40,000 nt of DNA. Origin: Marinimicrobium locisalis. Its GTDB lineage: Bacteria > Pseudomonadota > Gammaproteobacteria > Pseudomonadales > Cellvibrionaceae. Under the pieces are notes generated by a model. It saw only the letters and a list, made by a program, of their open reading frames with translations, did not search any database and was not told the origin of the DNA. The first letter of the stretch is position 1. Every line of letters begins with the position of its first letter. The position numbers were made by a program, and so were the translations under genes. Of this stretch, positions 7,667 through 40,000 are shown in pieces. The stretch is taken from positions 1 to 40,000 of the forward strand of contig NZ_JBDLLG010000018.1 of the NCBI RefSeq assembly GCF_039822625.1. Direction: 5' to 3'.

Positions 7667-7715
7667 GTATTGCCTCCGGTTTTTATAAAGTCGTTAAAGG
7701 AAATGCGTGCGTCAA

Positions 7716-8162
7716 TTATTGCCAACGGCCCAGGGCTTCTTGGTCTTTGGCTTTGGCCTCAACCCAGACCGGGCCGTCTTCGGTTTTTTCTTGTTTCCAA
7801 AAGGGCGCGCGGTTTTTCAAGTAGTCCATAATAAATTCAGCCGCCTGAAACGAGGCATCCCGGTGGGAGCTGGTCACGCCGACGAACACGATTTCATCGC
7901 CCAGGGTCATCGCCCCCACCCGATGAATAACGCGCACCCGCTCCAGGGGCCAGCGTTCGCGCGCCTCGCTGACAATCGCTTCCAACGCTTTCTCGGTCAT
8001 TCCCGGGTAGTGTTCCAAACTCAGGCCGGTGACCTGACGACCATCGTTGCGGGCGCGCACCCGGCCCACGAAAAACACCGCCGCGCCGGAGTCGACATCA
8101 TCGCCCGTCAGTTGACTGTATTCGCGGGCGACGTCAAAGGGTTCTCGTTGCACCGAGATCAT
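7716..8162 (-). CDS. moaE: Molybdopterin synthase catalytic subunit MoaE
   Basis: 148 aa with a family-typical sequence (FVGRVR...LEHYPGMTEKAL...HRDASFQAAEFIMDYLKNRAPFWK). It follows moaD after a 2-nt gap. Confidence 0.9.
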   Translation of the reverse strand: MISVQREPFDVAREYSQLTGDDVDSGAAVFFVGRVRARNDGRQVTGLSLEHYPGMTEKALEAIVSEARERWPLERVRVIHRVGAMTLGDEIVFVGVTSSHRDASFQAAEFIMDYLKNRAPFWKQEKTEDGPVWVEAKAKDQEALGRWQ

Positions 8163-12728: not shown

Positions 12729-13490
12729 CTAGAACTTGTACACCAGGTTGGCGTAAGTGGTGGTGTCGGTATTCTCTTTCTCCGGCCCCACCTCGCTGTC
12801 GTGCTGAATGGTGTAGCCCACTTTCATTTGCATGGAGCCGTTGATTTGCAGTGCCAAGGATGTGTCGGACACGGTGCGAGTGTTCTCGTCGCTGGATTCC
12901 ATGCTGAGTGTTTGTTTGAAGTCCGCCGTGGGTGAGACCTGCCAATCGAACTGAGCGGCCGCGCGCACCAAGGCCCCACTTTCGTCGACAACGCCGTCTT
13001 CGGTATCTTGCTCCGCCCAGTAGTAACCAGGACCAAGCTCTGCATCCAGCTGCATGGTGTCGGTTTCAAACAGGCGGTTCCCGTAACCCAGGGCGAGCGT
13101 CGTATACTTCTTGTACGCCCCAAACTCGTCATCGGTGTGGGAGCCAAAGACAAACAGGTTGGCGTTTTCGCGATTGATTTTATAGGCGCTTTTCACCGAG
13201 CCGGAGAACTTTTCCGCCGTAGTCTCCGTGGCCACCGAGCCATCGGGCTGGGCAACCTCATCCTCGGAATAAAGGATGTTGAGGGTGTACTGGTTCTTCC
13301 AGCGCTCAAGGTCCTGCGCCGCGTCCAGCTTGCCGTTAAAAGTGGTGCTTTCGGTGTTACCGGAGGTGGCAATGGCCCCAATTTCCGCCGAGGCCTTCCA
13401 GGTACGTTTCTCTTCGTCTTGCGCCATAACCGCTGGCGCCGCGCTCAAGGCCATCACTGAAGCGGCGATGGTCGTCAGTTTTGCCTTCAT
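12729..13490 (-). CDS. DUF481 (YdiY-like) outer-membrane beta-barrel protein
   Basis: Signal peptide MKAKLTTIAASVMALSAAPAVMAQ. Alternating beta-strand pattern with a C-terminal ...YANLVYKF aromatic terminus. SGNTES motif as in DUF481. I chose the start at M16 of the track ORF. Confidence 0.7.
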   Translation of the reverse strand: MKAKLTTIAASVMALSAAPAVMAQDEEKRTWKASAEIGAIATSGNTESTTFNGKLDAAQDLERWKNQYTLNILYSEDEVAQPDGSVATETTAEKFSGSVKSAYKINRENANLFVFGSHTDDEFGAYKKYTTLALGYGNRLFETDTMQLDAELGPGYYWAEQDTEDGVVDESGALVRAAAQFDWQVSPTADFKQTLSMESSDENTRTVSDTSLALQINGSMQMKVGYTIQHDSEVGPEKENTDTTTYANLVYKF

Positions 13491-16475: not shown

Positions 16476-17933
16476 TTATAACAACGTATCCTGGTTTGGT
16501 CGGTCAGTCCCTTCCGCCGCACGGCGCTCCTTAAGCTTCTCTTCGATATCGTTCATCGTTTTATTGTTGAGCGGATAGACCACCATACAGGCCACGCACA
16601 GAACGCCGAAGAAGGCGGGAATAAAGCTCATTAGCGTCAATATGCCCTGGGTCGCTTCAGCGGTCTGCTCTACGTTGGCCTCAAACCCGTAATAGCTGAG
16701 CGCCCAACCGGTCACGCCGCCGCCAATGGCCAACCCCAATTTGATCGCAAACAGGGAAATGGCCATAAGCAGCCCAGTGGCCCGACGGTGGTTTTTCCAT
16801 TCACCGTAGTCGGCGGCGTCCGTGTACATGGCCCACTGGAGCACAGAGACCGGCCCCCAGACAAAGCTGACCACCAGGTTGGTCAGGAAAATCGGGACAA
16901 TACTCTCGGGCGGCAAATAGAAGAAAAGCAGCGAAAGCACTGAGCTGATCGCCATACAGCCGACGTAGGTGAGCTTCTTGTCAAACACTCTAGCCATTTT
17001 TTTGGTCAACAATACGCCGAGAATGGTAGCGGCGCTGCCCAGCCCCAAAAACAAGGAGTTCAGGGTTGTCATTGTCGGCTCAAACGTCATTCCCAACAAA
17101 TGGACCGGCTGCTCGCCGATGTAGTAGCGGAAGTAATAGGCGATGGCCGAACTGCGAACCACAATAAAAATCAGCTGAAAAACCGTCGCCGCCGCGATCA
17201 TCACCCAGGCGACGTTGGTAAAAAGGTCTTTTAAGTGAAGAGTCGTCTTTTCCCTGTGCTGGGGCGGGGCGATGCGTTCCTTGGATGACACAAAGGTGAT
17301 AAATAACAAGCCCACCGCCAGAAGCCCGAAAACGCCCATGGTGAGCTGCCAGCCCAGCTCGTCGTTGCCCTGCCCCAGGCCGGCGACCAAGTACAAGGTG
17401 CCGAACTGAATAATCAGGCCACCGACAAAAGTGCCCACGAAACGGAAAGACGACAGCTCCACCCGCTCCATGGAGTTCGGTGTAATAACCGCCATCAATG
17501 ATGAATAGGGCACGTTCACCAAGGTATAGAAAACCATTAAGCCGTTGTAGGTAATGTACGCATACACTAGCTTGCCGGTGTCATCGAACATATCCGGTGT
17601 GGTGAACGCAAGCACGCCCATCACGGCCATGGGTACCGCAAAGAAAAAGACGAAAGGCCTGAACTTACCCCAGCGGGTGTTCGCCCGGTCCGCCAATGCG
17701 CCGATAATCGGGTCGGTAATCGCGTCAAATAGACGGGAGACGAACAACATTGTGCCCACGACGGCGGCCGACAAGCCAAACACGTCGGTGTAGAACACCA
17801 TGGTGAAGTATAGGAAGGTCTGAAAATACAGGTTAGACGCGGTATCCCCCACGCCATACCCCACTTTCTCCCAAAACTTTAGCTTGACCGGTGTGGGCTC
17901 TTTATTAGCGGGCGCGGCCGTTGAGTTTTCCAT
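16476..17933 (-). CDS. MFS transporter, glycoside-pentoside-hexuronide (GPH):cation symporter family
   Basis: About 12 TM segments. N-terminal EKVGYGVGDTASNLYFQT, then DAITDPIIGALADRANTRWGKFRPF and the later WKNHRRATG motif, all typical of MelB/YicJ-type GPH carriers. Confidence 0.8.
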   Translation of the reverse strand: MENSTAAPANKEPTPVKLKFWEKVGYGVGDTASNLYFQTFLYFTMVFYTDVFGLSAAVVGTMLFVSRLFDAITDPIIGALADRANTRWGKFRPFVFFFAVPMAVMGVLAFTTPDMFDDTGKLVYAYITYNGLMVFYTLVNVPYSSLMAVITPNSMERVELSSFRFVGTFVGGLIIQFGTLYLVAGLGQGNDELGWQLTMGVFGLLAVGLLFITFVSSKERIAPPQHREKTTLHLKDLFTNVAWVMIAAATVFQLIFIVVRSSAIAYYFRYYIGEQPVHLLGMTFEPTMTTLNSLFLGLGSAATILGVLLTKKMARVFDKKLTYVGCMAISSVLSLLFFYLPPESIVPIFLTNLVVSFVWGPVSVLQWAMYTDAADYGEWKNHRRATGLLMAISLFAIKLGLAIGGGVTGWALSYYGFEANVEQTAEATQGILTLMSFIPAFFGVLCVACMVVYPLNNKTMNDIEEKLKERRAAEGTDRPNQDTLL

Positions 17934-25629: not shown

Positions 25630-26055
25630 TTACCTTTTTCGCAGCCATCTAATTTGTGTATAAACCTTTGTAATTTCGACAGCAATAACAGCACTTAAAA
25701 GAACTATATATAGCGCCGGAACAAACTGCTTTAGCGACATAACAAAAAATGCACTTGGGGGAATGATTAGAAAAAACCTGAAAGGCGCCTGCGCTAGAGA
25801 TAAATACACGCCCGATTTCATTCTAACCAGCATAAGTATCGCCGATACGATCACTGAAGCCTTCATCAGATGTCCAACAACCGTCAGGGTAGCGGGATAA
25901 GCTGCTCCAAAAGACTTAGCAGCATCCAAGTCGGAAACAAAATTCGTGTAATATGGAACATTGCCGTGATAGATAGCGAGTCCAATCATCCACACCACGT
26001 ACGCTAAATCGAGCGCACCCCAAAATATTATTGTTCGATCTAAATTAAGCTTCAT
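25630..26055 (-). CDS. Putative Rhs immunity protein, 4-TM inner-membrane protein (141 aa)
   Basis: The ATG at 26055 overlaps the Rhs stop (ATGA), indicating translational coupling. Four hydrophobic helices are visible (IIFWGALDLAYVVWMIGLAIY, LTVVGHLMKASVIVSAILMLV, FRFFLIIPPSAFFVM, ALYIVLLSAVIAVEI). The gene is AT-rich relative to the rhs core. The track ORF start (26124) lies inside rhs and is unlikely. Confidence 0.6.
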   Translation of the reverse strand: MKLNLDRTIIFWGALDLAYVVWMIGLAIYHGNVPYYTNFVSDLDAAKSFGAAYPATLTVVGHLMKASVIVSAILMLVRMKSGVYLSLAQAPFRFFLIIPPSAFFVMSLKQFVPALYIVLLSAVIAVEITKVYTQIRWLRKR

Positions 26056-29000
26056 GGCAGAACATCCCAGGTTGGAGACGGAACTGGTGGTGCCCAGTGC
26101 CAAGAGTTTCCTTCTACTGCCCATGGGTCAGGATGATCCCCAAATGTCTGTTCAATTGTTCGAGTATCTCCCTCCATAGGATCATCTGGCATACAATAAT
26201 CTCTCTGATTTTGCGGATCATTCGGGTGATCAACCCAAGTTTGGGTCACATCCCTTGTAGCCCCCTCGAAATTATATGCATTCATGACAGTGCCTTCATC
26301 AAGGTTGGAAAGCCTGTCGACAATGCCAATAGCCCAATTTTTGACTCCGTGATGATCTACACCTGTAGTCACCCAAACAAGTCCCAATGGATCTACATAT
26401 TTCAGAGGATTTCCACTCACGTAAGCGTAAGTATTGAGCCCTCCTCGCAGACCTATAGGATCACTCTGAAGATACCTCCCGGTGGTCGGATCGTAATCCC
26501 TGAAGTAGTTGTAATGCAGCCCCGTTTCACTGTCGAAGTACTGGCCCGGAAACCGAATTTTGTTGGTAACTTGCGCGACTTCCACGCTGGCTTTTCCAAA
26601 CGGCGTGTACACGGCCTTCCACACCACGGTCTGCTGCGCATCGGTCAACAGCTGTGGGGTCCCCAGATGATCATTGTGATAGTAGTACACTCGATTTCCG
26701 CTGACCATCGACAGTGGAGCGCCTTCCAGGTAGACGTATTCCCGTATCGCATTGCCCGCGCTGTCGTATTCGCCGATCAACTGACCCTGCTCATTGTAGA
26801 GGTAGTGGATGACGGTGCCATCCGGGAGGGCCTTGATGACACGCTGGCCCAGGGCGTTATGGGTGTAGTCCGCCACCGTGGTACCGGACTGTGAGGCTTG
26901 TACCATCCGGTTGGCGGCGGAGTACTCAAACTGATAAGTGCCGTTGTTGATGGTATTGCCGACCGCGTCGTATTGGTAATTCTGGGTGCCTTTCAATAGG
27001 AGGTGGTGGCTGTCGGTGGCGTACTGGTAGTTTTCAGCGACACCGTCGGTGGTCTTGTCGGTGCGATTGCCGACCGGGTCGTAACTGAATTGAAGGTCGT
27101 AGTCGGAATTGATTGCTTCCACCAGACGGTTGATCGGATCATAGGCATAGTCGACGGCATTGCCTGTATTGGTCGGGTCTTCAATGCGGGTGATGTTGTT
27201 GACGGCATCGTACTCGTAGAGCCGGCGGCGCAAGGGGTCGCTGTCGCCCAGCTCGATGCCGGTCAGGCGGTAGTCGAGGTCATGGGTGCGGACCTCCTGC
27301 AGGCCATTGCCGTAAGTCACTTGGGACAGGGGGCCGAACGGCAGGTAGTCAATCGAATCCGCCAGCACCTGATCACTGCTTTGGCCGTTAAGCCGGGTGT
27401 GCAGAGCGCTCACCCGACCTTGAGTATCGCGGGTCAGGGACAGCTGCTGCCCAGAGGGGTAGGTGACGCCCGTCAGCTGGCCCGCTCTGTCATACTGGTA
27501 CTCGACAGTCAGCGCGTGGCCGTTGAGTTCGGTTTCCTTGCGGGTCACGTTGCCCAGGTGATCGTAAAAGTAACGGGTGGTACCAGACGGGTCTTCGACT
27601 CGAGTCAGCCGACCGATGCCGTTGCGGCCTGGGTCCTCGCTGTCATAGTGGTAGCTGACATTCTCCCCGGGGAAGTCCGGGTAACGCACGGCGGTCAGGC
27701 GATTGAGGGCATCGTAGTCGTATTCGGTACGCACGCCACGGGCGTCCTGGCGGGAGATGCGATTGCCCGCGCTGTCGTACTCAAAGGTGGTTAGGCCGGT
27801 GTCGGGGCTGGTCACTTCCACCAGATTGCCCAGGCCGTCGTAGCGGTAGTGGGTGGTGAGGCCCTCGGGGTCGGTGACGGAACTGATCTGGTCTCGGCTG
27901 TTGTAGGTGTAGTGAGTCTCGCCCAGCGCGGGGTCGATCACTTCGCTCACCCGGTCCAGGGCGTCGTATGCCCGCTGGGTTTCATTGCTGCGTTCATCCA
28001 GAGTGCTGACCCGGTTGCTGTTCACGTCATAGCCATATCGGCGCACGCCGCCATCGGCTGACGTCTGTTCCAGCAAGCGTCCAAGTTCGTCAAAGACCTG
28101 GGTGTGACGCTTGACCAGCTGACCACCCACGTCGTGGATGCGCTCGGTGGTCACGTTGCCCATGGCATCGTGTTGGAACTCGACGCGCTCGCCGTCCGTC
28201 GCCTCGATGGCGGTCAGGCGATGGGCGGCATCGTATTCGTAGCTCAGGTGGGTGCCGTCCGGTAGGGTCAGGCGGGTGAGCTGGCCGACCCTATCCCGCT
28301 CGAAGGACGCGACCGCCCCTCCGGTCTGCTGACGGATGAGTCTGCCTCGGGCATCGTAGTCCAGCTCGGTGACAACGCCATTGGGATCGACCAGACGCAC
28401 GGGACGGCCAGCTGCATCATGGTTCGTGATCTCAGTCGTTTGATATAGGGCGTTGATGACGCGCACTCGGTTACCCTGGCCGTCGTACTCAAATCGGGTG
28501 CGATCAGGTACGTCGGTGCGCGGGCCGTCAATGTCGGTAACCTGCCCGTATGAGTTATGGCTGTACCCAGTGACCTGGCTAGCGCCCGTGGCCCTATCGA
28601 CGACACGAATCTCGCTACGATTGCCAGCGGAATCATAACTCAAATGGCGGCTCTGAGCTGTATCGTGAATAGCCGTGGGACGGCGAAATTCTGGGTGCCA
28701 CTCGATAGCGCTGCTGCGTTCGTCTACCGTCTCAAATGCTTCCACGCGTCGCAGCTCCAATCCTCGCTCGTCATGAGTATAAAGGCTAGCCACGCCACTA
28801 TAGTCGACTTTCTTGGCAAGATGGCCATTGGCATCATATGAAAAAAGAGCATCCTCTGGAGCGCAATTCTCACAAGCACGCCGTTCAATGCGGGTTACCC
28901 TGCCCCGCCCATCGAATAGGTCGTGCTCATAGAGCAGTGTGGTGTCGCGCTCTGCGTCTACTTGGTAAGTGACCTCAGTTTGGTGATCCCCCAGATAGCG

Positions 29001-30800
29001 AAGCGCCACCCGACCGGCGCCACCGGCGTGCTCACTAAGCACCGCGCGCCCCTCACTATCGTATGCGTAGGTGGCATGGCGCTCACCATCTTCATCAATG
29101 ATACCGGTGATATTCCGAGGGTTATCTGGGTCTTCGAACAGATACTGCCGGCGCGGATTATCGGACGAATCGTTAGTCGTGTCATCCGGGTAGATTACGG
29201 TAGTCAGGTTGCCGAGGCTGTCGTATTGATAGCGGAAGACGTGCCCTTCTGGAGTCGTGATAGCGACTACCCGATAACCGCCACTTTTCCATGCTCGCTC
29301 ATACACCATGGATCGACCGCGTTCATCGGTTATCTCCTGGCGTCGAATGTTGCCCTCGACGGTCCACGAACTCCCATTCGGCTCGTTCATAGACCTTAGG
29401 CCATTAGAAGCGTGAATAACGAGAACTCTGCCGCCGGCCATCTCATAGCGATATAACCGGGTTTCCGGATAATAGCTAAGGACTTCTCCCTCGGCATTGC
29501 GGTATTCAGAGGTCGCTGAAAAGCCACGGTAGTCGTCAGTCACGAAAACGTCGACTCGATTACTGGGGAAACGCAGCTTCACGGCACGAAGCTTTCGATC
29601 CCCCCATTCCATGCCTACATTGACATGCTCCACTTGGTAATCCAACGACCAATTCCATCCTGCCTCAGTTTCTGAGAAACGGTTAGGAAGCCTCTGTGCG
29701 CTCGGATCATCACGATGAGCATAGAGATTCCGATCACGAACCGACTCGCGAACGCGACGACTACTATACGTGCGCATGATGCTGAGACCATCGGGAGCGA
29801 AGTAATCAGTCTCGTGCTGCACTTTCGCTCCAGTGATACAGGAGATCGGGTTGCCCACCAACGAACTGGCGCTATCCCCGAGCCCAGAACTACCCGAGCC
29901 TGAAGCAGAGGTGCTCTCAGAGCAGGGCTGATAAGGAATATCATCCACCTGACACAGTTCCGGCGTACGGTGAAGGCGCGCCACACCAAGCTTGCGATTA
30001 AACTCCCAATAGGGCTCGTGGGGGATATTCTCGCAGTAGGGAGAACCCGCTACGATCTGATAACCACAACCACAAACGTCAAAATAAGCATTGAAAGGTA
30101 CCTTTCCATGGTGATAGATGTAACCGGTATTGCCCTCATCGTCGACATATATAGAACGCGCGGCACAACTGTAGGGTAAGTTCGCAACTGTCCTTCCGTG
30201 GGAGTCAACAGAGCTTTCTGCTCTGTTCCAATCGATTTCGATCACGACTTGACCTTCTCCGCCCCACTCCTCGTGCTTGTTGTGACAGGCTTCTCGAATT
30301 GCATCTACTGCAGTTGTTGATAAAACACTTGCGCTGGCACGCCAGCCAGTTTTAACTCCATCCCCCTCGGGAAGCGCCACTGTAGTACCTTGATGAATCA
30401 CTTCTTCCGAAATGGCCGGATAACTTGAGACAGCACAAAAAATGACGAATACCATCCAGGCCACACGAGAGAGCGCTCTGGATCTATGGCGAAAATGCGC
30501 ATCATGAGGGCACCGATCCCCCACCCCCCAGAACTGTGCCCCTGCTCTCTCCGCCCAGGCCAGAGGCTCCTGCTTGCGAGGACTCCACTTGATCACGAAA
30601 TTCTCTTGTCCCTGTTTACATAAACGCTTTCGGTTTTCACTAGGATCATTGGCGCTGTCCAGACGAAACTCTATCGATGCCCCCGTCAAAATTCGGGCAC
30701 GAGGGATGATCTGCCTTATCGCATTCAACAATCCGTTACTGGCAAAAGGGCCGTCGGAACGAGCAAAACAAAAACTCCATTTCTTTGTCGACATCGTCAA
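26052..30800 (-). CDS. Rhs / YD-repeat polymorphic toxin with a variable C-terminal toxin domain
   Basis: Dozens of YD repeats (YxYDxxGNL/R). N-terminal plug-like [18 protein letters not shown]. Rhs core end ...[13 protein letters not shown]...[59 protein letters not shown], followed by a 108-aa tail. The start is uncertain. The ATG at 30794 has an AAGGA SD. The ATG at 30455 would instead give a signal-peptide-like N-terminus ([18 protein letters not shown]). Confidence 0.9.
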   Translation of the reverse strand: [1582 protein letters not shown]

Positions 30801-31227: not shown

Positions 31228-32196
31228 CTAACCCGAATATTTCATCAATAAGCTACCCGGTGTGCGTGATTGCTTAGAGGCGCTGCTGAGCAACAGCATT
31301 ACCTGGCGGGTATTTCGAATGACTACACCACCGATTTTCAATAGCTTCAAACGGATGGTGCCGACCTGGACCGAGACCCACTCGGTGCCCGCCAGCGCCA
31401 AGTTACGCAGTCGTTCCACCAGCGTATAGGCCATTGCGGACAGTAGAAGGGAAAACTGATTGGGCCACCACTCATGGCAGGAGATTCGGCCAGAGAACAG
31501 GAGTTGCTGCTCCTTGATCCGGTTTTCAGTATCGCCTCGTGCGCAGTAGACTTTGGTGCAGAGGTGTTTGTCGCTCTGTTTGAGGTTGGTGACTACAGAC
31601 CGGAGGTTCACATTGCTCAGCGCGGTTCCACGATTACGGTTTCTGTGCTGAGCAGGAACAATCCGGCGCATTTCCTGAGAATAGTGCCGGTTCAAAAGCT
31701 CATAGGCTTCGGTTACCTCCTGACGAAGTTGGATCTTCTGAGCACCGGCCACACGGCCAACCTTGTTGTGCCGGTGCAGTTTAATCAGCGCCTGCTGGTA
31801 TTGAATCAGGGCGTTCTGAAAGCTGGTGGTGCGGCCCTGGGCGGCTGCCACACCCACACCGGCAACGCCGTTGACGTCCGCAGGGGAGGGTAGCTCAAAA
31901 TTGGCCAAGTGGCGCTCGTAGAATTCGGCCATAGCGTGAACATCCTCACCATAATTCGCCACGCATTGGTCCAGGTTTTGGCGAGCGGTCATCGGCAGGC
32001 TGTTGAACTGTTGTGTCACTATCTGCGAAGCGAGAGAGGACGAAGAGGATGTATTGTATGCGAAGTACCCAGACATCGTCGTATTTCCATTGGAAACCTG
32101 AGGGTTACAGCTTAAAAACTGCTCCAGAGTTTCCGGGTCCTGCTGGCAAAGCTGATTGGCGTTGGCAGGGGTCCGTGAAAAGCGGATATCCGGCAT
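31228..32196 (-). pseudogene. Chimeric ORF: 5' about 210 codons of an unknown gene fused in frame to a C-terminal fragment of an IS1380-family transposase
   Basis: Good SD (AAGGAG, 7 nt) before the ATG at 32196. The last ~110 aa (VYCARGDTENRIKEQQLLFSGRISCHEWWPNQFSLLLSAMAYTLVERLRNLALAGTEWVSVQVGTIRLKLLKIGGVV) match the conserved C-terminus of IS1380 transposases. The junction is near 31560. The N-terminal part has no motif I can assign. Confidence 0.65.
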
Positions 32197-32593
32197 GGTA
32201 AAGCTCCTTGATCGTTCCCTAAGGTGAGGAGGAGCGCGCTCTCCTCCCTAACATTATTAGAATACTATGATTAGCGTCTTTGCAAGTCAATTCACCGGAA
32301 GGCCCTAATTTTCATCTGTGAACGGGCTCACACTTTTCGCCGTGATAACGTGGCAACAAGCAAACCGTCACCAACTCCTGAAAAGCCTCTACTACCTTAC
32401 TACCTTGGGCAGCACCTCCTTCGGTTTCGGGCGGGCGGCTTACCGACTTCATAGCCCCTTGTACGATCAGAACCTCTACGGTCTACTGTGTTGCCTGGAA
32501 GCAACTACTTTGGCGGGGACACTGGAAAGGGGGTTAGGCGCGTCTCCTTTAGACATACTTTGGGTCACAACAACGAATCACTTTGCACTAGTT

Positions 32594-32612
32594 AATGTTA
32601 TGTTATAACATT
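32594..32612. promoter_or_regulatory. Zur-box-like operator upstream of the dksA2-type operon
   Basis: AATGTTATGTTATAACATT is an 18/19 match to the palindrome AATGTTATAWTATAACATT and contains the perfect 12-bp palindrome ATGTTATAACAT (32600-32611). It lies 70 bp upstream of the dksA2-type start. The downstream genes are classical Zur-regulon members. Confidence 0.65.
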
Positions 32613-32681
32613 ACTAACTTAAATAATGCCCAGTTTCACCCGCAACATGACGCTGGTAGACGTCAAAAGTAGGCAAAAATT

Positions 32682-33092
32682 ATGGCGGTTACAGAAGAAT
32701 GGCTGACCCTGGCCTCTGACGAAGAGTATATGAACGCCAACCAACTGGCCTTTTTTCGGGACAGGCTCTTGAAGCTGAGGGGGGAGAGTCTCCTTACCAT
32801 TGAGGCCACCCAACATAGTCTCGTCCAACGCCCGGAGCTAGACGACAGTGCCGAGCTGGCTCAGTACGAGGAGGAGTCGTGGCTCACGCTTCGCATCATT
32901 GAGCGCGAGGCAAAGCTGGTGAAAAAGATTGATTCCGCCCTGGCGCGCATTCGTCGGGGAGCCTATGGCTACTGCCTCGCCAGTGGCGAGCCGATTGGCA
33001 TTCAGCGGCTTCTGGCCCGGCCTACCGCCGAGTATTGCGCAGAAGTCAAAACGCAAATTGAAGAACAGGAAAAGCACTATGGCAAACGTTGA
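32682..33092 (+). CDS. dksA2: DksA-family protein of the zinc-independent DksA2 type (C4 zinc finger degenerated)
   Basis: DksA/TraR C-terminus [28 protein letters not shown]. Only the first Cys of each CxxC pair is kept (CLAS...CAEV), as in the Zur-regulated DksA2 of Pseudomonas. Confidence 0.75.
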
Positions 33093-34299
33093 AAGAAGGC
33101 TTCCCGTCACGGTTCTCTCCGGCTTTCTGGGCGCCGGAAAGACCACGGTGCTGAGCCATGTTCTGAACAACCGCGACGGCCGCCGGGTGGCGGTTATCGT
33201 CAATGATATGAGTGAAATCAACATCGACGCGGCGGCCGTACAGAGCGAGGTTCAGTTGAACCGCAGCGAGGAAAAGCTGGTGGAAATGAGCAACGGCTGC
33301 ATCTGCTGCACGTTGCGCGAAGACCTGCTCCTGGAGGTCCGCCGCCTGGCTCAGGAGGGGCATTTTGACTACCTTCTGATTGAGTCCACCGGGATTTCCG
33401 AACCCCTGCCCGTGGCCGAGACGTTTACCTTCGCGGATGAAGAAGGCAACAGCCTCTCCGATGTCGCGCAGCTGGATACCATGGTGACGGTCGTGGACGC
33501 CGTGAATTTCCTCAAGGATTACGATGAGGCCAAGTCACTGCAGGAAACCGGCGAACATTTGGGCGAAGAGGACCAGCGCAGCGTGGCGGAGCTGCTAGTG
33601 GACCAGGTCGAATTCGCCGATGTGATTCTGATCAGCAAGACCGACCTGGTGAATAAGCCAACCTTACAGCGTTTGGAAGCCGTACTCAGAACGCTCAACA
33701 CCGAGGCGGAAATCATCGCCATCGAGCACGGCGAGGTGAATATCGACAAGGTATTGGGCACAGGCCACTTCAGTTTCGAAAAAGCCCAGCAAGCACCGGG
33801 CTGGCTGAAGGAAATGCGCGGCGAGCATGTCCCGGAAACCGAGGAGTACGGTATCGGTAGCTTTACCTACACCGCGCGCCGCCCCTTCCACCCGCAGAAG
33901 TTCCACGCCTTTCTTCACGGCGACTCCATCACCGGAAAGCTGATTCGCTCCAAAGGTTACTTCTGGCTCGCCAGTCGGCCAGAGTTTGCCGGCCAGTGGA
34001 GTCAGGCGGGAGGCATGGCGCGGTACGGTTTCGCGGGAATGTTCTGGAATGCGGTTCCAAAGGAAAATTGGCCGGACGATGAAGAGTACCTAGCCTCCAT
34101 CCAACAGCAGTGGGAGGAGCCTTTCGGGGATATGCGCCAGGAACTGGTTTTCATTGGTCAGGGCCTGAATCGTCAGCAGTTTACCCAAGCGCTGGATAAC
34201 TGCCTGCTCAATGACGAGGAGCTGCACAGTGGCCCCGAGCAATGGGTGACCCTTCCCGATCCTTTCCCCCAATGGACCCAGCCCGCCGCTGAAGAATAA
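33079..34299 (+). CDS. COG0523-family (CobW/ZigA/YeiR-like) metallochaperone GTPase
   Basis: P-loop GFLGAGKTT, metal-binding [10 protein letters not shown], Walker B-like LLIESTG, and a CobW_C-like C-terminal domain. The start MANVERR at 33079 overlaps the dksA2-type stop. The longer track ORF (32929) is out of frame with dksA2 and unlikely. Confidence 0.85.
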
Positions 34300-34312: not shown

Positions 34313-34705
34313 ATGCGAAACGTACAAACCATCACCGATAAAACCGCCATCGGGTTGTCCACACTTTGTGCGATCCACTGCCTGATGCTGCCTGTCGCCA
34401 TTGTCATGCTACCTTCTTTGTTCGCCACCTCATTAGGTGACGAAAGCTTCCACCAGTGGCTTCTGCTGGCGGTAATACCCAGTAGCGCGACTGCCCTGAC
34501 CCTCGGGTGTCGGAGACATGGTCGCTGGGGGGTGGTCACCACCGGTGTTCTGGGTTTAAGCGTGCTGGTATTCACCGCCTTTTTCGGGCACGACCTGTTG
34601 GGCGAGACCGGCGAGAAGATTGCCAGCGTGGTGGGAGCGGCGCTGATTGTTGCCGGGCATCTGAAAAATCACCTCGCCTGCCGGAAAGGTTATTGTACAA
34701 CGTAA
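34313..34705 (+). CDS. MerC-domain-like small membrane protein (about 4 TM)
   Basis: Strong SD (TAGGAGG). STLCAIHCLMLPVAIVMLP with a CxxxC-type Cys pair in TM1 resembles MerC-family proteins. A C-terminal Cys pair (ACRKGYC) is present. Confidence 0.55.
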   Translation: MRNVQTITDKTAIGLSTLCAIHCLMLPVAIVMLPSLFATSLGDESFHQWLLLAVIPSSATALTLGCRRHGRWGVVTTGVLGLSVLVFTAFFGHDLLGETGEKIASVVGAALIVAGHLKNHLACRKGYCTT

Positions 34706-34906
34706 AACTGAAGTCGTTTACATAGATATCTAGCGCCAAGTGAAGCAAGAGCTTGAGACACTCACCATGTTCTACAAAATCAGCAGCGAGTACAGCATGT
34801 ATAAAAATCACAGTGGGTATCGTCATCGATTCCTTGATGCTAGGGCCGCCGAAATGTATCAAGCACGTCGGCGCCAACGGCATTGTGACTTACTCTTGCC
34901 AAAAAG

Positions 34907-36574
34907 GTGGCGGGGAACTTAAAAGCAGATAAAGCCGAAAGCACCTTCACCCACAACTGCCCTGAGGCCATCGTGCTAGCTTATCTTATCCGTCAATCCC
35001 GCCCACTATTGATGGCCGCCTCCGCCGCTAGCGTAATATCTGGGATATGCGGCGTTCTTATGATTTCCAGAATCAACGTCGCAATCACGACAGAACACCA
35101 TTCCAAAGCTCTAATCTGGAGCTTTTTTGGGCTGATAGTGCTGTTAATGCTTTGTCGGATTTTATCATCGGCACTGTTCGAGCGCTTGGCTCAGCATGCC
35201 ATGGCGGAACTACGGCGCTACATATCAGGAAGGGTTTTGGCAGCTGAACTGCGGCAACTGGAGGAAATAGGGAGCGCCAAAATACATTCCGCACTAAGCG
35301 AGCATTGCTCAAGTGTCGTCCAGTTTTTCGTTACCCTACCCTCTCTATTGAATAACTCGGTGGCTGTTGTTGGATGTATGGCCTACATGGCGCTACTTTC
35401 ATGGCAGATATTTTTGGCCGCGTTGGTCATGGTTGGGTTAGGATCCCTGGGCCACTATCTGGCACAATTAAAGGCAATAGAGTTTCTAAAAAAAGCCTCT
35501 CACGAGCAAGATCGGCTGTTTGGGCACTTCAGGGCTCTTACCGATGGAGCGAAGGAGTTGCGTCTCAATGCTCGCAAACGCCGCATGTTCGGTAACGAGC
35601 TTTTGGGTCAATCAATCGAGGAAGTCCGCAAAAACCGCACAGCAGGCGCCTCGATTTTTATGGTTTCCTCCAGATGGGGAAACTTTCTAATTTATGCGTT
35701 CATTGGATTAGTGTTGTTTGTACTCTCAAAAAACATCCCCAATCGAGCCGAGGTGATGACAGGGTTCGCATTGGTATTTTTTTACATGATGGGACCTTTG
35801 GAAGGGCTATTAAGTGCCATCCCCCGCGCCAAAGTTTCCGGAGTGGCCGCCAATCGAATTGAAGCGATTGTCAGCGACATGCCCGAAACCGAATCGATGT
35901 CAACGTTAGCTCATCCAGATCGCTCATTTACTTCTTTACAACTTAAATCGGTGACCCATCGTTATTATCATGAACGAAGCGATGAACTGTTCGAGCTCGG
36001 GCCTATCAACTTGGAGTTTCAGCCAGGAACGGTTACCTTTCTGGTGGGTGGCAATGGCAGTGGCAAAACAACTTTAGCAAAACTAGTGACGGGGCTCTAT
36101 ACTCCGGAATCCGGCAATGTTTTCCTTAATGGCGTGCCGATAGCTGACTCCAGCCGCGATGACTACCGTCAGTTATTTTCCGCTGTGTTCTCAGACTTCC
36201 ATTTATTTGAACAGTTATTGGAGGTGCATCGCTCTAATCTCGACGAAGCAGGAAACCGACTGCTGCACCGGCTACATCTACACCATAGGGTTAAAGTCAA
36301 CGACGGTGCTTTTACCACCCAGTCTCTTTCTCAGGGGCAACGTAAACGTCTGGCTCTTGTGACAGCTCACCTGGAAGACCGACCTTTCCTGGTGTTTGAT
36401 GAGTGGGCTGCAGATCAGGACCCTACGTTTAAAGAAGTGTTTTATCGGGAGCTGTTACCCGAGCTTAAATCTGAAGGAAAGACCGTTTTGGTGATCTCCC
36501 ATGATGACCGCTATTTTCACCTAGGAGACCGGCTGCTGACGCTGGAGAACGGAAATCTGACCACAGTACCCTGA
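34907..36574 (+). CDS. Cyclic-peptide-type ABC exporter (fused TMD-NBD, YojI/McjD-like): candidate lasso-peptide exporter/immunity (D)
   Basis: Six predicted TM helices followed by an NBD with Walker A GGNGSGKTT, signature LSQGQRKRLAL and Walker B LVFDEWAADQDP. The DEWAADQD variant is typical of cyclic-peptide exporters. The start may be the GTG at 34973, which has GAGG 5 nt upstream. Confidence 0.8.
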   Translation: MAGNLKADKAESTFTHNCPEAIVLAYLIRQSRPLLMAASAASVISGICGVLMISRINVAITTEHHSKALIWSFFGLIVLLMLCRILSSALFERLAQHAMAELRRYISGRVLAAELRQLEEIGSAKIHSALSEHCSSVVQFFVTLPSLLNNSVAVVGCMAYMALLSWQIFLAALVMVGLGSLGHYLAQLKAIEFLKKASHEQDRLFGHFRALTDGAKELRLNARKRRMFGNELLGQSIEEVRKNRTAGASIFMVSSRWGNFLIYAFIGLVLFVLSKNIPNRAEVMTGFALVFFYMMGPLEGLLSAIPRAKVSGVAANRIEAIVSDMPETESMSTLAHPDRSFTSLQLKSVTHRYYHERSDELFELGPINLEFQPGTVTFLVGGNGSGKTTLAKLVTGLYTPESGNVFLNGVPIADSSRDDYRQLFSAVFSDFHLFEQLLEVHRSNLDEAGNRLLHRLHLHHRVKVNDGAFTTQSLSQGQRKRLALVTAHLEDRPFLVFDEWAADQDPTFKEVFYRELLPELKSEGKTVLVISHDDRYFHLGDRLLTLENGNLTTVP

Positions 36575-36578
36575 AAGG

Positions 36579-37505
36579 CTACAACGAAGGCACCGACGAC
36601 TTCTGCAGGTCCAATTTGGCTTTAAGAACAGATGTCTTACGAATTACGGGAACGACCCGTGCCAGACGATCATCGACATAATCTTTGAATAATGGCGGTC
36701 GCGGCGAGTCGAGATAAAACTGTCGATCCTGCTTAACGGCAGCAGGCAACAAAAAGTCTGACACATCCGCCTCGGACGCATCCATCAAAAGGCAAGGCAC
36801 GTAACAGAAACCCAGCTCGCGCAATGCATATACGCGGTGTGAGCCATTGGTCAGGATAATTCGACTACCCGAACGCGTGGCGCTGATCACGTTGTCGCTG
36901 AATCCTACATACATCACGATCGCATGGCTTGCCGCGCCAACGGGGCTGAAGTTTTGAATTGCATCCGGTTCGAGTGTTACGACGTCCAGAAAACGCAGGT
37001 CATTTGACGCCGAAGTGAACATATAACCGCCATCGGATTGTGTGCACCGAACGGTGGGATGCGAGTGGGTACCGCGGCAAGAAACAAGATCGATAACATC
37101 CTGAGCACTCGGGTCAGACACAAGGGAGGTCTGAATCTTTTCAACGTGACGCAAATTGATGGATTCCTGAAAAACGACCAGCCGATCAATCTCCACCATG
37201 CACCAACGTCGCGGTACCAGTGAAGCAACCCTTTGCATTGAGGGTTGCCGCAGCACCTCCTCCGCCAGAGGTTTCATTTCTTCCGAAAGTTCGCGCACAC
37301 CAATGCTATCGGCGACACCAGCTTCCTCATCCATGACTTGTAAAGCTACGGCGCGCGCTTCTCGCCACTCAGCCACCAAAGCGGGGTCCTCAAAGCTCCT
37401 GGGAGAACATCGCTCCCGGATAAAGCGTATGAATTGGGGTAATGGAAATAACCCCTTAATCACTATGGTCGGATTGCTACCTTCGTCACCCATCCCGGTG
37501 TTCAT
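36579..37505 (-). CDS. Orphan 308-aa protein of unknown function, divergent from the lasso precursor
   Basis: Long clean ORF with coding-like composition. I recognise no family. The only hint is RIILTNGSHRVYALRELGFCYVPCLL, which resembles the (D/N)GxHR...G...VP motif of ParB/sulfiredoxin-fold proteins. A Zur-type box lies 50-65 bp upstream of its ATG. Confidence 0.6.
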   Translation of the reverse strand: MNTGMGDEGSNPTIVIKGLFPLPQFIRFIRERCSPRSFEDPALVAEWREARAVALQVMDEEAGVADSIGVRELSEEMKPLAEEVLRQPSMQRVASLVPRRWCMVEIDRLVVFQESINLRHVEKIQTSLVSDPSAQDVIDLVSCRGTHSHPTVRCTQSDGGYMFTSASNDLRFLDVVTLEPDAIQNFSPVGAASHAIVMYVGFSDNVISATRSGSRIILTNGSHRVYALRELGFCYVPCLLMDASEADVSDFLLPAAVKQDRQFYLDSPRPPLFKDYVDDRLARVVPVIRKTSVLKAKLDLQKSSVPSL

Positions 37506-37526
37506 ATGTGCCCCAGCCTGTAGTTA

Positions 37527-37554
37527 TTGAATGTAAATTTGCTATCTTTATAGT
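37527..37554 (+). promoter_or_regulatory. Putative sigma70 promoter of the lasso precursor operon (TTGAAT-16 nt-TATAGT)
   Basis: TTGAAT at 37527-37532 and TATAGT at 37549-37554. The -10 element abuts or overlaps the Zur-type box. Confidence 0.4.
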
Positions 37555-37570
37555 GATGTTATAACATTTC
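37553..37570. promoter_or_regulatory. Zur-box-like operator in the divergent promoter region of the lasso cluster
   Basis: GTGATGTTATAACATTTC, whose reverse complement is GAAATGTTATAACATCAC. It contains the same perfect 12-bp palindrome ATGTTATAACAT (37556-37567) as the box at 32600-32611. Confidence 0.6.
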
Positions 37571-37686
37571 ATTAAGTCGGATCAACAATCCCCGACTTCT
37601 ACGTTTTTATCCGTAGAGACTTTTCATCAACCCGCAATTGGCTGATGAAGATATTCGTTAGATAACGAACACAAGAGGTGATCATT

Positions 37687-37869
37687 ATGAACGAACTGAT
37701 TGAACTAGGCGTGTTAAACACAGGAAACAACGCGCAAAACAGCAGCGCTTTACCGCAGCACGAGCTCAGGGAGCTAGGCTTGGTGGTTTCAGAGACCAAA
37801 GCTCACGACCACAGCAGTAAGATGGACGACACCTTTCCATCCACATCCCCGGATTCTCTCTCACGTTGA
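37687..37869 (+). CDS. Candidate lasso-peptide precursor (60 aa)
   Basis: SD AAGAGG lies 8 nt before the ATG. The leader ends ...LRELGLVVSETK, fitting LxxxGxxxxxTx with Thr at -2. The predicted core is AHDHSSKMDDTFPSTSPDSLSR with Asp9 as ring acceptor. It sits directly upstream of the B and C genes. Confidence 0.55.
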   Translation: MNELIELGVLNTGNNAQNSSALPQHELRELGLVVSETKAHDHSSKMDDTFPSTSPDSLSR

Positions 37870-37879
37870 CATCCGGATT

Positions 37880-37915
37880 GGCGGGCGACTCCTCCACAAG
37901 AAGGAATCGCCCGCC
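37880..37915 (+). other. Stable stem-loop between the precursor and the B gene
   Basis: GGCGGGCGA-(18 nt)-TCGCCCGCC, a 9-bp GC-rich stem. It starts 11 nt after the precursor stop. No U-tract follows. Confidence 0.5.
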
Positions 37916-37937
37916 TCCCAAAAATAACGAGGTCTTC

Positions 37938-38642
37938 ATGGACCCCAAGGTGGAATCTCCGTACTTTCTCTCCAAGCAGGCACATGTATGCATCGCTGGC
38001 GGAACGATGTTTATGCTGGATGAGATAAACGGAAAATACCTAGCAATTGAAAAAACGCAAGCGGCAAGCTTCGAGCCCTTTATTGGAAATTGGCCGATAA
38101 AAGCGACAAGCTGTAACGCTCCGGTATTCCCTAGAGCTTTACTCCAGCGTCATTTAATAACTCCCTATCCTAACCTGGGAAAACCCGCCACACCGCCAAC
38201 AATTCAGCTACCCAACGTATGGTTAAGAGATGGGCAGCCTCGAGGACGACCCCGAATAACAGCGAAGGACGTTTATAGGTTCGCTATCTCCGTTTCTTGC
38301 GCACTCCATAGCAAAAAACGTTTACCGTTCAAAAATATAGTATCCATGGTTCAGAAGAGAAAACCATCCACACCAGAGCGACGGGTCGAAACTGACATAT
38401 TGGCATTATTGGTTCGTGTGTTCGATTGGCTTCGACCCTTTGCCTTTAAAAAAACAGATGAGTGTTTTCTTTACTGCTTGGCGCTCAACGAATTCCTGGC
38501 AAAATATAGCATCCACCCGACCTGGATATTCGCGGTTCAAGAGCAGCCGTTCACCGCTCACTGCTGGTTGCAATATGGTGACCAGGCGCTGACCGACATT
38601 CCATTCAACTTGCGGCGAATGGTGCCAATTCTCGTTCTCTAA
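37938..38642 (+). CDS. Lasso peptide leader protease, McjB-like (N-terminal RRE-like region fused to a transglutaminase-like Cys protease)
   Basis: SD ACGAGG lies 5 nt before the ATG at 37938. C-terminal ...ECFLYCLALNEFLAKYSIHPTWIFAVQEQPFTAHCWLQYGDQALTD fits the lasso B2 pattern C...PF.AHAW(V/L)...G....D (Cys/His/Asp triad). N-terminal HVCIAGGTMFMLDEINGKYLAIE looks like PqqD/RRE beta-strands. The track's GTG at 37866 overlaps the precursor stop and is less likely. Confidence 0.8.
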   Translation: MDPKVESPYFLSKQAHVCIAGGTMFMLDEINGKYLAIEKTQAASFEPFIGNWPIKATSCNAPVFPRALLQRHLITPYPNLGKPATPPTIQLPNVWLRDGQPRGRPRITAKDVYRFAISVSCALHSKKRLPFKNIVSMVQKRKPSTPERRVETDILALLVRVFDWLRPFAFKKTDECFLYCLALNEFLAKYSIHPTWIFAVQEQPFTAHCWLQYGDQALTDIPFNLRRMVPILVL

Positions 38643-38653
38643 GTCACCCACAT

Positions 38654-40000
38654 ATGTATCGATATATAGCGATTTTCTGGAACAGCTTCTCGTATCCGTC
38701 AGTAAATCAAGCCAGGCAAGTTAAGGCAAAGATAGAAACAAAATTTCCCAGTATGACATGCGCCTTAAAATCGGCTGATGCTGCAATCTACCATCAAAGT
38801 GACGACCAGGGAATATTTGAATGCAGCCAAGCGGGATCGCTCGTCATTTTTGGCAAGGTATTTGTTAAAAATTTCGGAACTGATATCGTGCCTGACACTG
38901 CCGTGTTCGACACCGGCTCTGCCACGGACGTTTGTAACAGTCAGGGGCGCGCACTCCTGAAAAACTACTGGGGAAGGTATATTGCATTTGGTTGTGACTC
39001 GAAGAAGGAAAAGTGGTTTGCTTTGCGAGACCCAACCGGAGAAATACCTTGCCATATCACCGTTATGGAACATGTCACCGTATTTTTCTCCAATACGGAG
39101 GACTGTTTGAAGCTGCAATTACGCCAGTTCTCCATTAACTGGCCCTACTTTGCCAGCTCGCTCATCCTTCCATTTCGAGATGGCAGCCAGACAGGTCTCA
39201 AAGAAATCACAACGCTGGAAGCAGCGGAGACGATGACTATTGAAAATGGAACTCCTGTGGCGCGAGAATCCCATTGGGATGTGGTACAAGCCGCCGCCGA
39301 GGACCCAATAACCGACTTGAACGAAGCTGTTCAGCTTGCACGAACAACCCTGCTTGGTTGTATTGGTGCATTGGCAAGCCAGCATACCCACATTCAGTTG
39401 AAGCTCTCTGGCGGGCTTGATTCCTCAATCGTCTTGGCGGGTTTGCTTCATGCCCCCTCAAAGCCCGAGGTAGAGTGCGTTCACCATTACGACCCCGGCA
39501 TCGGAGCGGATGAAAGGGAGTATGCAAGAATGGCGGTTGCAGGAGCCTCCCAATCCTCAGGCAGAACCTGCGAGCTTATTGAGCATGAACGAAGACCTTA
39601 CTGCTCCTTGGAAGAAATAATGGATTTCCCACGGACTGCTCGGCTCCTCTACTGCTCAGGCTACCTTCTCCATCGCGACGTCGGATCAATTAGCGCATTA
39701 AGCGGGGCGTCAACCCGATTTACGGGCGTGGGGGGCGATGCGGTATTCCTTCGTTTCAAGGGTAACGGCGGCGCGATCGACTACGCTTGGCGTCACGGGA
39801 TTAACCTGGAGTTACTGCGGGTCGCACTCGAAACCGCTCAGTCCGGTGATTCATTCTATGGGGTTTTAATGGACGCTTTTCGTTATGGAGTGCTCAAGAA
39901 GCCGCTTTCCGCGAATAAAAGGTGGGGAAGCCCTTGCGAATGGCTTCGCGCTGGCGCCAATCAAGCCGAACCCCAACCCGCGTGGATGCGACACGCGCTT
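38654..40000 (+). CDS. Lasso peptide cyclase, asparagine-synthetase-like (McjC-like), 3'-truncated by the window edge
   Basis: I translated 449 uninterrupted codons from the ATG at 38654 to position 40000. It is absent from the supplied ORF track because it has no stop in the window. It contains the PP-loop LKLSGGLDSSIVLAGLL and the later FTGVGGDAVF of Asn-synthase-B-type adenylating enzymes. Confidence 0.85.
   Translation, partial: MYRYIAIFWNSFSYPSVNQARQVKAKIETKFPSMTCALKSADAAIYHQSDDQGIFECSQAGSLVIFGKVFVKNFGTDIVPDTAVFDTGSATDVCNSQGRALLKNYWGRYIAFGCDSKKEKWFALRDPTGEIPCHITVMEHVTVFFSNTEDCLKLQLRQFSINWPYFASSLILPFRDGSQTGLKEITTLEAAETMTIENGTPVARESHWDVVQAAAEDPITDLNEAVQLARTTLLGCIGALASQHTHIQLKLSGGLDSSIVLAGLLHAPSKPEVECVHHYDPGIGADEREYARMAVAGASQSSGRTCELIEHERRPYCSLEEIMDFPRTARLLYCSGYLLHRDVGSISALSGASTRFTGVGGDAVFLRFKGNGGAIDYAWRHGINLELLRVALETAQSGDSFYGVLMDAFRYGVLKKPLSANKRWGSPCEWLRAGANQAEPQPAWMRHAL

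Follow-up and report, generated by a model that had tools for sequence, protein, structure and literature searches.

What would a bacterium make a lasso peptide for, if the genes that make it lie under an operator for the zinc regulator Zur? Lasso peptides have mainly been studied as antibiotics, and the natural role of most is not known. The question is raised by a stretch of 40,000 nucleotides from Marinimicrobium locisalis (contig NZ_JBDLLG010000018.1, positions 1 to 40,000; the whole of it is called the window here), in which an earlier note, made from the sequence alone, had picked out a four-gene lasso cluster wired to a Zur operator. Comparison with related loci leads us to place this cluster in a horizontally mobile, Zur-repressed family of lasso clusters that is switched on under zinc starvation and in which a zincophore-like role is the likeliest one for the peptide, a reading to which we assign a probability of roughly 0.55. 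Regulation and neighborhood together point to a physiological job, either zinc acquisition or competition under zinc limitation.

That the window holds a genuine lasso peptide gene cluster is close to certain, and the positions and motifs given in the earlier note for the four genes, D, A, B, and C, are all confirmed. The precursor gene A (37687 to 37869, + strand; 60 amino acids [aa]) is an open reading frame (ORF) conserved throughout the family described below, and it has the good ribosome-binding site that had been claimed for it, AAGAGG, 8 nucleotides before the ATG at 37687. Directly downstream, B (37938 to 38642, +) encodes a leader peptidase in which an N-terminal domain is fused to a B2 Cys protease. 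The McjB-type signature PFTAHCWLQYGDQALTD is present, the lasso B2 model NF033537 is matched at 59.7 bits (cutoff, 33), Pfam recognizes Transglut_core3 (PF13471), and C176, H208, and D220 are invariant across 23 homologs; the protein is 100% identical to one annotated “lasso peptide biosynthesis B2 protein” of Marinimicrobium locisalis. The N-terminal 116 residues of B, where an RRE/B1 leader-recognition domain would be expected, have no Pfam match, and fused proteobacterial B proteins often escape the RRE/B1 domain models. The gene for the Asn synthetase-like lasso cyclase, C (38654 to beyond 40000, +), is cut by the end of the window, so that only part of the earlier description stands: the fragment is indeed an uninterrupted frame of 449 codons carrying SGGLDSS, but its matches to Asn synthase and lasso cyclase models are weak (E values of 1e-9 to 3e-9) and far under the curated cutoffs. 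It is 60 to 83% identical to full-length orthologs of 616 aa that bear Pfam Asn_synthase, and a full-length ortholog with that domain yet also falls under the NCBIfam cyclase cutoffs. Finally, D (34907 to 36574, +; 555 aa), with the motif FDEWAADQDP, is an ABC exporter of the cyclic-peptide (YojI/PvdE/SyrD) family, an assignment borne out by 473 bits against TIGR01194, “cyclic peptide export ABC transporter” (cutoff, 286); its 422 bits against the YojI model NF007813 are under the cutoff of that model. A specific closeness of D to any solved ABC transporter was considered and rejected, the top PDB matches being the generic ABCB1 and MsbA, with McjD not among the matches listed.

Relatives of the cluster were collected by an alignment scan with the B protein, limited to one genome per species, which gave 80 loci; further loci came from exact-protein lookup, and gene content was read by tblastn (individual loci are cited below by number, as in L090). 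The precursors of the family share a leader of the form MNELIELG...ELIELGxVVSETK and a core of the form AH[NDSG]HG[TS]..D...[TS]TSP, that is, x1-His2-x-His4-(G/S)-(T/S)-x-x-(Asp/Glu)9 ... (T/S)TSP, and we refer to them as the AHxH family. The window precursor consists of the leader MNELIELG...LGLVVSETK and the core AHDHSSKMDDTFPSTSPDSLSR, which meet at ...SETK/AHDHSSKMD. As in other lasso precursors, Thr stands at position -2, core residue 1 is small (Ala; Gly in Woeseiaceae), and core residue 9, within the expected range of positions 7 to 9, is acidic (Asp; Glu in Steroidobacter), from which a nine-residue ring is predicted, closed between Ala1 and Asp9 in the window peptide. His2 and His4 are invariant within the AHxH family, a conservation that is suggestive of metal ligands and goes no further than that. 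The core is near-identical over Pseudomonas, Stenotrophomonas, Xanthomonas, and Lysobacter, and the leaders vary: AHNHGTLWDG(I/V)FPTTSP is common to Pseudomonas, Lysobacter, and Stenotrophomonas bar the I/V site, and Xanthomonas deviates at position 3 only. A single locus without His-x-His, L025, is also without Zur boxes. Exilibacterium-like loci have a second precursor gene after C, with the variant core AHDHGTLMDNCLPTTSPDGLPC (L004, around 12745 to 12925; L091, 6638 to 6820).

The regulatory claim of the earlier note had started from a 12-bp core, ATGTTATAACAT, shared by two promoters. The sharing is real, since this 12-mer occurs exactly twice in the 40 kb, at 32600 before a dksA2-zigA operon and at 37556 before A, with no extra matches when up to 2 mismatches are allowed (at that tolerance, 7 of 100 shuffles reached at least 2 matches). 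As a functional unit, the 12-mer did not hold: it is that part of a longer Zur box which lies nearest the spacer, and the 12-bp palindrome was dropped as the operator for a 17-bp unit of 7-3-7 architecture found at the dksA2 promoters of relatives. The Zur box of the clade is accordingly the 17-bp palindrome ATGTTAT-GTT-ATAACAT. The register used for the sites is that of the gammaproteobacterial Zur consensus, GAAATGTTATANTATAACATTTC. Box 1, TTAATGTTATGTTATAACATTAC (32592 to 32614), with the core ATGTTAT-GTT-ATAACAT at 32595 to 32611, precedes the dksA2-zigA-merC-like genes and possibly serves D as well; it agrees with the consensus at 18 of 22 positions. Box 2, TTATAGTGATGTTATAACATTTC (37548 to 37570), with the core TAGTGAT-GTT-ATAACAT at 37551 to 37567, precedes A, agrees at 16 of 22 positions, and lies 43 to 65 bp upstream of a divergent gene for an accessory protein. 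The two boxes are identical at 19 of 23 positions, with the same GTT spacer and the same right arm. Box 2 covers the -10 element (37549 to 37554) and the start region of a sigma-70 promoter predicted by consensus scan, TTGAAT-16-TATAGT (37527 to 37554, +; 9 of 12 positions), in keeping with the earlier statement that GTGATGTTATAACATTTC, at 37553 to 37570, overlaps this promoter. Such a placement, which would allow repression by occlusion, fits the published Zur box of Pseudomonas aeruginosa, a 17-bp palindrome that often lies over the -10 element (PMC10393844).

Both boxes also stand far above background in a matrix of 14 sites taken from the receptor, exporter, and dksA2 promoters of other genomes, none of them upstream of an A gene. 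Within the window, this matrix gives 29.2 bits at box 1 (the best score in the 40 kb), 20.3 or 17.5 bits at box 2, and 12.5 bits at a weak Zur-like box, GAAAGGTTATTGTACAACGTAAA (34684 to 34706), about 200 bp upstream of D; nothing else reaches 10 bits, and no position of at least 10 bits occurs in 988 kb of background drawn from unrelated lasso loci, which are more GC-rich (62%). It remains conceivable that box 2 is chance or decayed AT-rich promoter sequence, so that the window copy is not zinc-regulated even if its relatives are, considering that its left arm is degenerate, that it overlaps an AT-rich -10 element, and that boxes upstream of A are weak or lost in some lineages. We regard this as very improbable in view of its 17.5 to 20.3 bits against that empty background, of a window in which the only other position of at least 10 bits, besides the dksA2 box, is the weak site upstream of D, and of boxes at the same position in 11 other genera and in a relative whose B protein is 87% identical.

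This last relative, L090, is the nearest one known to us, and it has matrix matches above 7 bits at two places only: about 160 bp upstream of D (24 bits), the place that corresponds to the weak box at 34684 to 34706 in the window, and in the gap between the accessory gene and A (22 to 23 bits). When 20-kb loci were scanned at a threshold of at least 15 of 22 consensus positions, each had one to six matches (examples are AAATTGTTATATTATAACATATC in Lysobacter, at 19/22, and AATATGTTATATCGTAACATTTC in Stenotrophomonas, at 18/22), except for L019 and L025, which had none. Most of these matches fall between the accessory gene and A or just upstream of a TonB-dependent receptor gene, and most others fall upstream of the exporter. 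A box of at least 15/22 sits at the same place upstream of A in 10 of 13 representative loci, to which L090 adds another, and the operon of the receptor and ABC-2 transporter of relatives has a Zur box of its own. In L016, of Stenotrophomonas maltophilia, the receptor gene and a divergent gene for a 573-aa ABC exporter are 70 bp apart, and a single box occupies this gap. When the intergenic regions of 12 genera were aligned by MAFFT without guidance, the boxes, including box 2, came together in one block, which is the sole conserved stretch apart from the ribosome-binding site. Many of the Stenotrophomonas loci are not independent of one another. Among 51 more distant lasso loci (957 kb), there are 2 consensus matches, both in L026 and one of them 70 bp upstream of the precursor gene; L026 is also the only one of the 51 seen with the accessory gene, ABC-2 genes, and receptor together. 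The claim of a lasso cluster under a Zur operator is thus supported by the B2 model, the likeness to box 1, the matrix score, and conservation in about ten genera, and on these comparative grounds direct Zur control is highly probable.

Fur in place of Zur was rejected as the regulator, matches to the Fur consensus in the same regions reaching at most 13/19. Separately, near-perfect Fur-type boxes that are unrelated to the Zur-type boxes lie a few kilobases from the cluster in L004 (CAAATGATAATCATTATCATTTG, 2794 to 2816) and L091 (CAAATGATAATGATTATCATTTG, 16755 to 16777).

The surroundings of the lasso genes are as conserved as the boxes. The unit typical of the family consists of the accessory gene on the opposite strand, A, B, and C, followed by genes for an ABC ATPase, two ABC-2 permeases (DUF3526), and a TonB-dependent receptor, and it is found in Exilibacterium, a metagenome-assembled genome of Porticoccaceae, Steroidobacter, Woeseiaceae, Lysobacter, Pseudomonas, many Stenotrophomonas, and several Xanthomonas. 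The order of D, the reversed accessory gene, and then A-B-C, which had been noted as differing from the usual ABCD arrangement, is no peculiarity of this copy but the normal order of the family. A receptor gene adjoins the cluster in every relative with enough flanking sequence, where biosynthesis, export, and TonB-dependent uptake are both co-located and provided with boxes together; the window itself ends inside C, and in M. locisalis the receptor and ABC-2 operon presumably follow, as extrapolated from these relatives. This Zur-boxed operon behind C, out of sight for the earlier note, is the strongest clue to function. An exporter of the window type is kept in the Cellvibrionales-like loci L004, L005, L090, and L091 (81 to 85% identity of D in L004 and L005), and other hosts have a different ABC exporter.

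Several particulars of individual loci were recorded along the way. In L005 (3388 to 6965) and L091 (12649 to 15728), genes for an HlyD-type adaptor and a MacB-type ABC pump lie directly upstream of D, and in L005 a strong Zur-type double box, GTTATGATATGTTATATCATAAC, stands before this row of HlyD, MacB, and D. The P. aeruginosa copy (L001 to L003, 1 to 4625) sits beside the conjugative-transfer genes TraU and DUF1525; L001 and L002 have an insertion sequence (transposase) just upstream of the exporter gene, and the accessory gene of L002 is called shorter, at 207 aa. A Stenotrophomonas-type cluster in L010, nominally of Nocardiopsis yanglingensis strain A18, looks like contamination or mislabeling of an actinomycete assembly, its A-upstream box being the same as that of L011 and its receptor-upstream box nearly the same as that of L012.

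How might these parts work together? Repression by Zur implies induction of the cluster by zinc starvation: once zinc runs short, Zur would come off the DNA and A would be made, and the genes for synthesis, export, and uptake would be derepressed together. The precursor would be cut by B, cyclized by C to the nine-residue Ala1-Asp9 ring, and exported by D. Outside the cell, the peptide would bind zinc or a related divalent metal via His2 and His4 of the ring, and it would return through its cognate TonB receptor, acting as a ribosomal zincophore analogous to pseudopaline and staphylopine. Taken by itself, a role of the peptide in zinc acquisition, as judged from sequence, has somewhat less than an even chance of being right, and the full scheme, in which a mobile system makes the peptide only under zinc starvation, holds zinc through the ring histidines, and takes it back up by TonB, is more tentative still. 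As to its mobile part, the system would move between Gammaproteobacteria on mobile elements, among them a region of P. aeruginosa resembling an integrative and conjugative element, and it is chromosomal in S. maltophilia.

The main rival to a zincophore is an antimicrobial of the microcin type that is induced by zinc starvation, with D and/or the ABC-2 transporter providing export and self-immunity and the TonB receptor serving a separate route of zinc uptake. Most characterized proteobacterial lasso peptides (microcin J25, capistruin, and ubonodin among them) are antibiotics to which a D-type exporter gives immunity, the ABC-2 ATPase of the family resembles DrrA and lantibiotic-protection ATPases, and His residues matter for the uptake of microcin J25 into its targets. 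The core, however, is almost invariant over four genera, in contrast to the hypervariability usual for antimicrobial cores; a dedicated, co-regulated TonB receptor stays with the producer in every locus with enough flank, which is the architecture of a metallophore and not of a toxin; and importing its own toxin would bring the producer no gain. We therefore consider an antimicrobial unlikely, with perhaps a quarter of the weight. It is less probable again, and in our view rather improbable, that Zur or a Zur-like repressor of the Fur family is at work on some other cargo (Ni, Co, Cu, or Mn), or that the peptide is a metal buffer or signal, in the periplasm or outside the cell, instead of an uptake shuttle. 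Zur-regulated opine metallophores such as pseudopaline and staphylopine do bind several metals, His-x-His suits Ni and Cu too, and no inner-membrane importer is obvious in the cluster; yet the motif upstream of A is the one before dksA2-zigA operons, which are zinc-specific Zur targets, and the matches to a Fur-type consensus are poor.

Returning to the main reading, Zur control together with a zincophore, a number of points tell against it. The case is built on sequence comparison, and a pair of histidines is by itself not enough for a zinc site. Transporters of the ABC-2 type mostly export, and no path through the inner membrane can be made out. Because the window ends short of any TonB receptor, the presence of one in this genome is extrapolated; a kinship of the family receptor to a solved zinc receptor was looked for and rejected, there being no close likeness to any solved receptor beyond the plug domain. 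The left arm of box 2 is degenerate (4 of 7 positions), with 17 to 20 bits against 29 for the dksA2 box, and the training sites of the matrix were chosen because they resemble the Zur consensus, so that their likeness to one another is inflated. Boxes upstream of A are weak in L004 and L091 (9.7 bits) and in L006, L007, and L009 (10 to 12 bits) and absent in L019 and L025.

Viewed against described systems, the locus combines two known kinds, a lasso cluster and a Zur-regulated metallophore locus. With the mcjABCD clusters of microcin J25 and capistruin it shares Thr at -2, a fused B protein with Cys, His, and Asp (at spacings of 32 and 12 residues from C to H and from H to D, which we take to match those of McjB), the SGGLDSS cyclase, an ABC exporter, and a hairpin that follows the precursor gene. 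Unlike them, it has the order D, accessory(-), A-B-C with the extra 308-aa protein, an exporter of the YojI/PvdE family (or of a different ABC family in other hosts), and, in the family, Zur boxes at the promoters, a TonB receptor and ABC-2 operon, and a conserved core. Isopeptidase-containing lasso clusters of the astexin/caulosegnin type likewise adjoin TonB-dependent receptors, which earlier prompted a scavenging hypothesis for those peptides; in contrast to them, no isopeptidase and no FecI/FecR were seen here, Zur boxes stand at A and the receptor, and the exporters are ABC transporters.

Among metallophores, the opine zincophores (pseudopaline, from cntOLMI/zrmABCD, and staphylopine) resemble this family in that a Zur box overlies the promoter and one locus holds the genes for biosynthesis, the exporter, and the TonB receptor (PMC10393844), and they differ in that the product is a nicotianamine-like opine and not a ribosomal lasso peptide, for which metal binding is putative. 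Methanobactins and bufferins, metallophores among the RiPPs (peptides made on the ribosome and modified after translation), are ribosomal peptides tied to metal homeostasis (see PMC11626156); they differ in handling copper by MNIO/DUF692 chemistry and are neither lasso peptides nor regulated by Zur.

PvdE, which we take to be a member of TIGR01194, the family of D, invites a further parallel: the HlyD-plus-MacB pump upstream of D in L005 (where it is Zur-boxed) and L091 recalls PvdRT-OpmQ, an analogy of architecture only, as pyoverdine export and recycling involves another metal, another regulator, and another molecule.

In a literature search that left most subscription journals uncovered, we found no report of a Zur-regulated, zinc-responsive, or metal-scavenging lasso peptide or of these cores, and the novelty of a Zur-regulated lasso peptide is to that extent provisional. 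If the zincophore reading is right, the peptide would be the first zincophore among the RiPPs and the first lasso peptide shown to serve in nutrient acquisition. The hosts of the family include the opportunistic pathogens S. maltophilia and P. aeruginosa, the plant-pathogen genus Xanthomonas, and marine Cellvibrionales; since zinc starvation of the calprotectin type is a major host defense, a peptide zincophore carried by a mobile cluster would matter for virulence. The idea lends itself to direct testing, as the peptide is short, gene-encoded, and easily mutated.

The operon behind box 1 is the Zur-regulon operon that it had been taken for. Its first gene (32682 to 33092, +) encodes a dksA2-type paralog, that is, a zinc-independent DksA, with the Pfam domains DksA_N and zf-dskA_traR and only 2 of the 4 zinc-finger cysteines kept (CLAS...CAEV); the second, zigA (33079 to 34299, +), encodes a COG0523 zinc metallochaperone GTPase that matches the equivalog model NF038288 at 704.7 bits (cutoff, 600); and the last (34313 to 34705, +) encodes a small MerC-like membrane protein (PF03203, E value of 1.2e-27). 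In relatives, dksA2 genes occur in dksA2-cobW-DUF1826-ZrgA operons; their promoter boxes include TTTATGTTATGTTATAACATAAT in L084, where DksA2 is 88% identical and the Zur core is the same as in box 1, and TTTATGATATGTTATATCATATC in L086 (Zhongshania). The dksA2, zigA, and MerC-like genes and D all lie on the + strand; from zigA onward the gaps are 14 bp and 200 bp, and a consensus scan for terminators came up empty between the MerC-like gene and D. With this arrangement, D may be expressed by read-through from box 1, besides its own weak box at 34684.

The same region bears on how the cluster arrived. As had been noticed earlier, the cluster is AT-richer than its backbone: its GC content is 49% in D, 52% in the accessory gene, and 51% in A-B-C, compared with 57.5% in dksA2-merC and 56.6% in bases 1 to 30000. 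The MerC-like gene stands third in the operon of the window, and the operons of L084 to L086 have other genes after cobW/zigA. In L084, which has the closest relative of the dksA2-zigA operon of the window, the gene after zigA (6794 to 7762) is EgtB-like (DinB_2 plus FGE-sulfatase) and neither merC nor D, and its position probably marks where the lasso island was inserted. Shortly upstream of the Zur operon lies an ORF of 1,582 aa that is Rhs/YD-repeat toxin-like by sequence (26052 to 30800, -), followed by an ORF (31228 to 32196, -) in which a transposase fragment, the C-terminal part with its IS1380/DDE match, is joined to an unrelated N terminus; the two make up mobile-element debris beside the island. 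The low GC content, the EgtB-like gene at the L084 boundary, and the upstream IS1380 fragment and Rhs-type gene together suggest that a lasso island was inserted next to a native Zur operon, which supports the earlier suggestion of horizontal acquisition. In Xanthomonadaceae, the GC content of the cluster equals that of the host.

The accessory protein (36579 to 37505, -; 308 aa) had been set down as an orphan, a label that did not survive comparison: the gene is a conserved cluster member, with orthologs beside A-B-C in L001 to L027 (L010 not covered) that are 47 to 85% identical, falling to 36% in the distant L026. A word-index search finds 76 homologs, and a profile search recovers 1,210 cluster representatives at an E value of at most 1e-3, or 285 at an E value of at most 1e-30. 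The window copy has no Pfam or NCBIfam match, 41 members have no Pfam match, and there is no sequence match in the PDB. An AlphaFold2 model (pLDDT of 88) has weak Foldseek matches to PDB structures (E values of 0.07 to 1 over about 55 residues, with TM scores of 0.12 to 0.15 on the query), the better of which are all of the ParB/sulfiredoxin fold (PadC, ParB, Srx, SbnI, and Noc), so that we describe the core as faintly ParB/sulfiredoxin-like; the family has an invariant N-G-x-H-R motif. Our guesses are that the protein modifies the conserved TSP tail as a nucleotide-dependent tailoring enzyme or, alternatively, that it is a DNA-binding regulator. The lasso family provides a first genomic context for this 308-aa protein family without annotation. 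A distant member in L088 (6808 to 7722) has a non-lasso neighborhood, beside an HTH/Peptidase_M78 pair and a deaminase, and some family members are fused to glycosyltransferase and methyltransferase domains (P0386).

Two hairpins flank the precursor gene. RNAfold predicts a strong one in the spacer between A and B (GGCGGGCGA...TCGCCCGCC, 37880 to 37915, +; -28 kcal/mol), with equivalents in five orthologous loci that were folded, and a stem-loop in the 5' untranslated region (TTCATCA...TGATGAA, 37623 to 37649, +), just before the ribosome-binding site of A. A conserved RNA structure in this 5' region was considered and is not supported, RNAalifold giving no consensus and Rfam no match. In folds of individual sequences, most orthologous loci again have a stem immediately before the ribosome-binding site of A, with differing sequence and modest z-scores; equivalents occur in loci among L001, L004 to L009, L011, L013, L014, L020, and L024.

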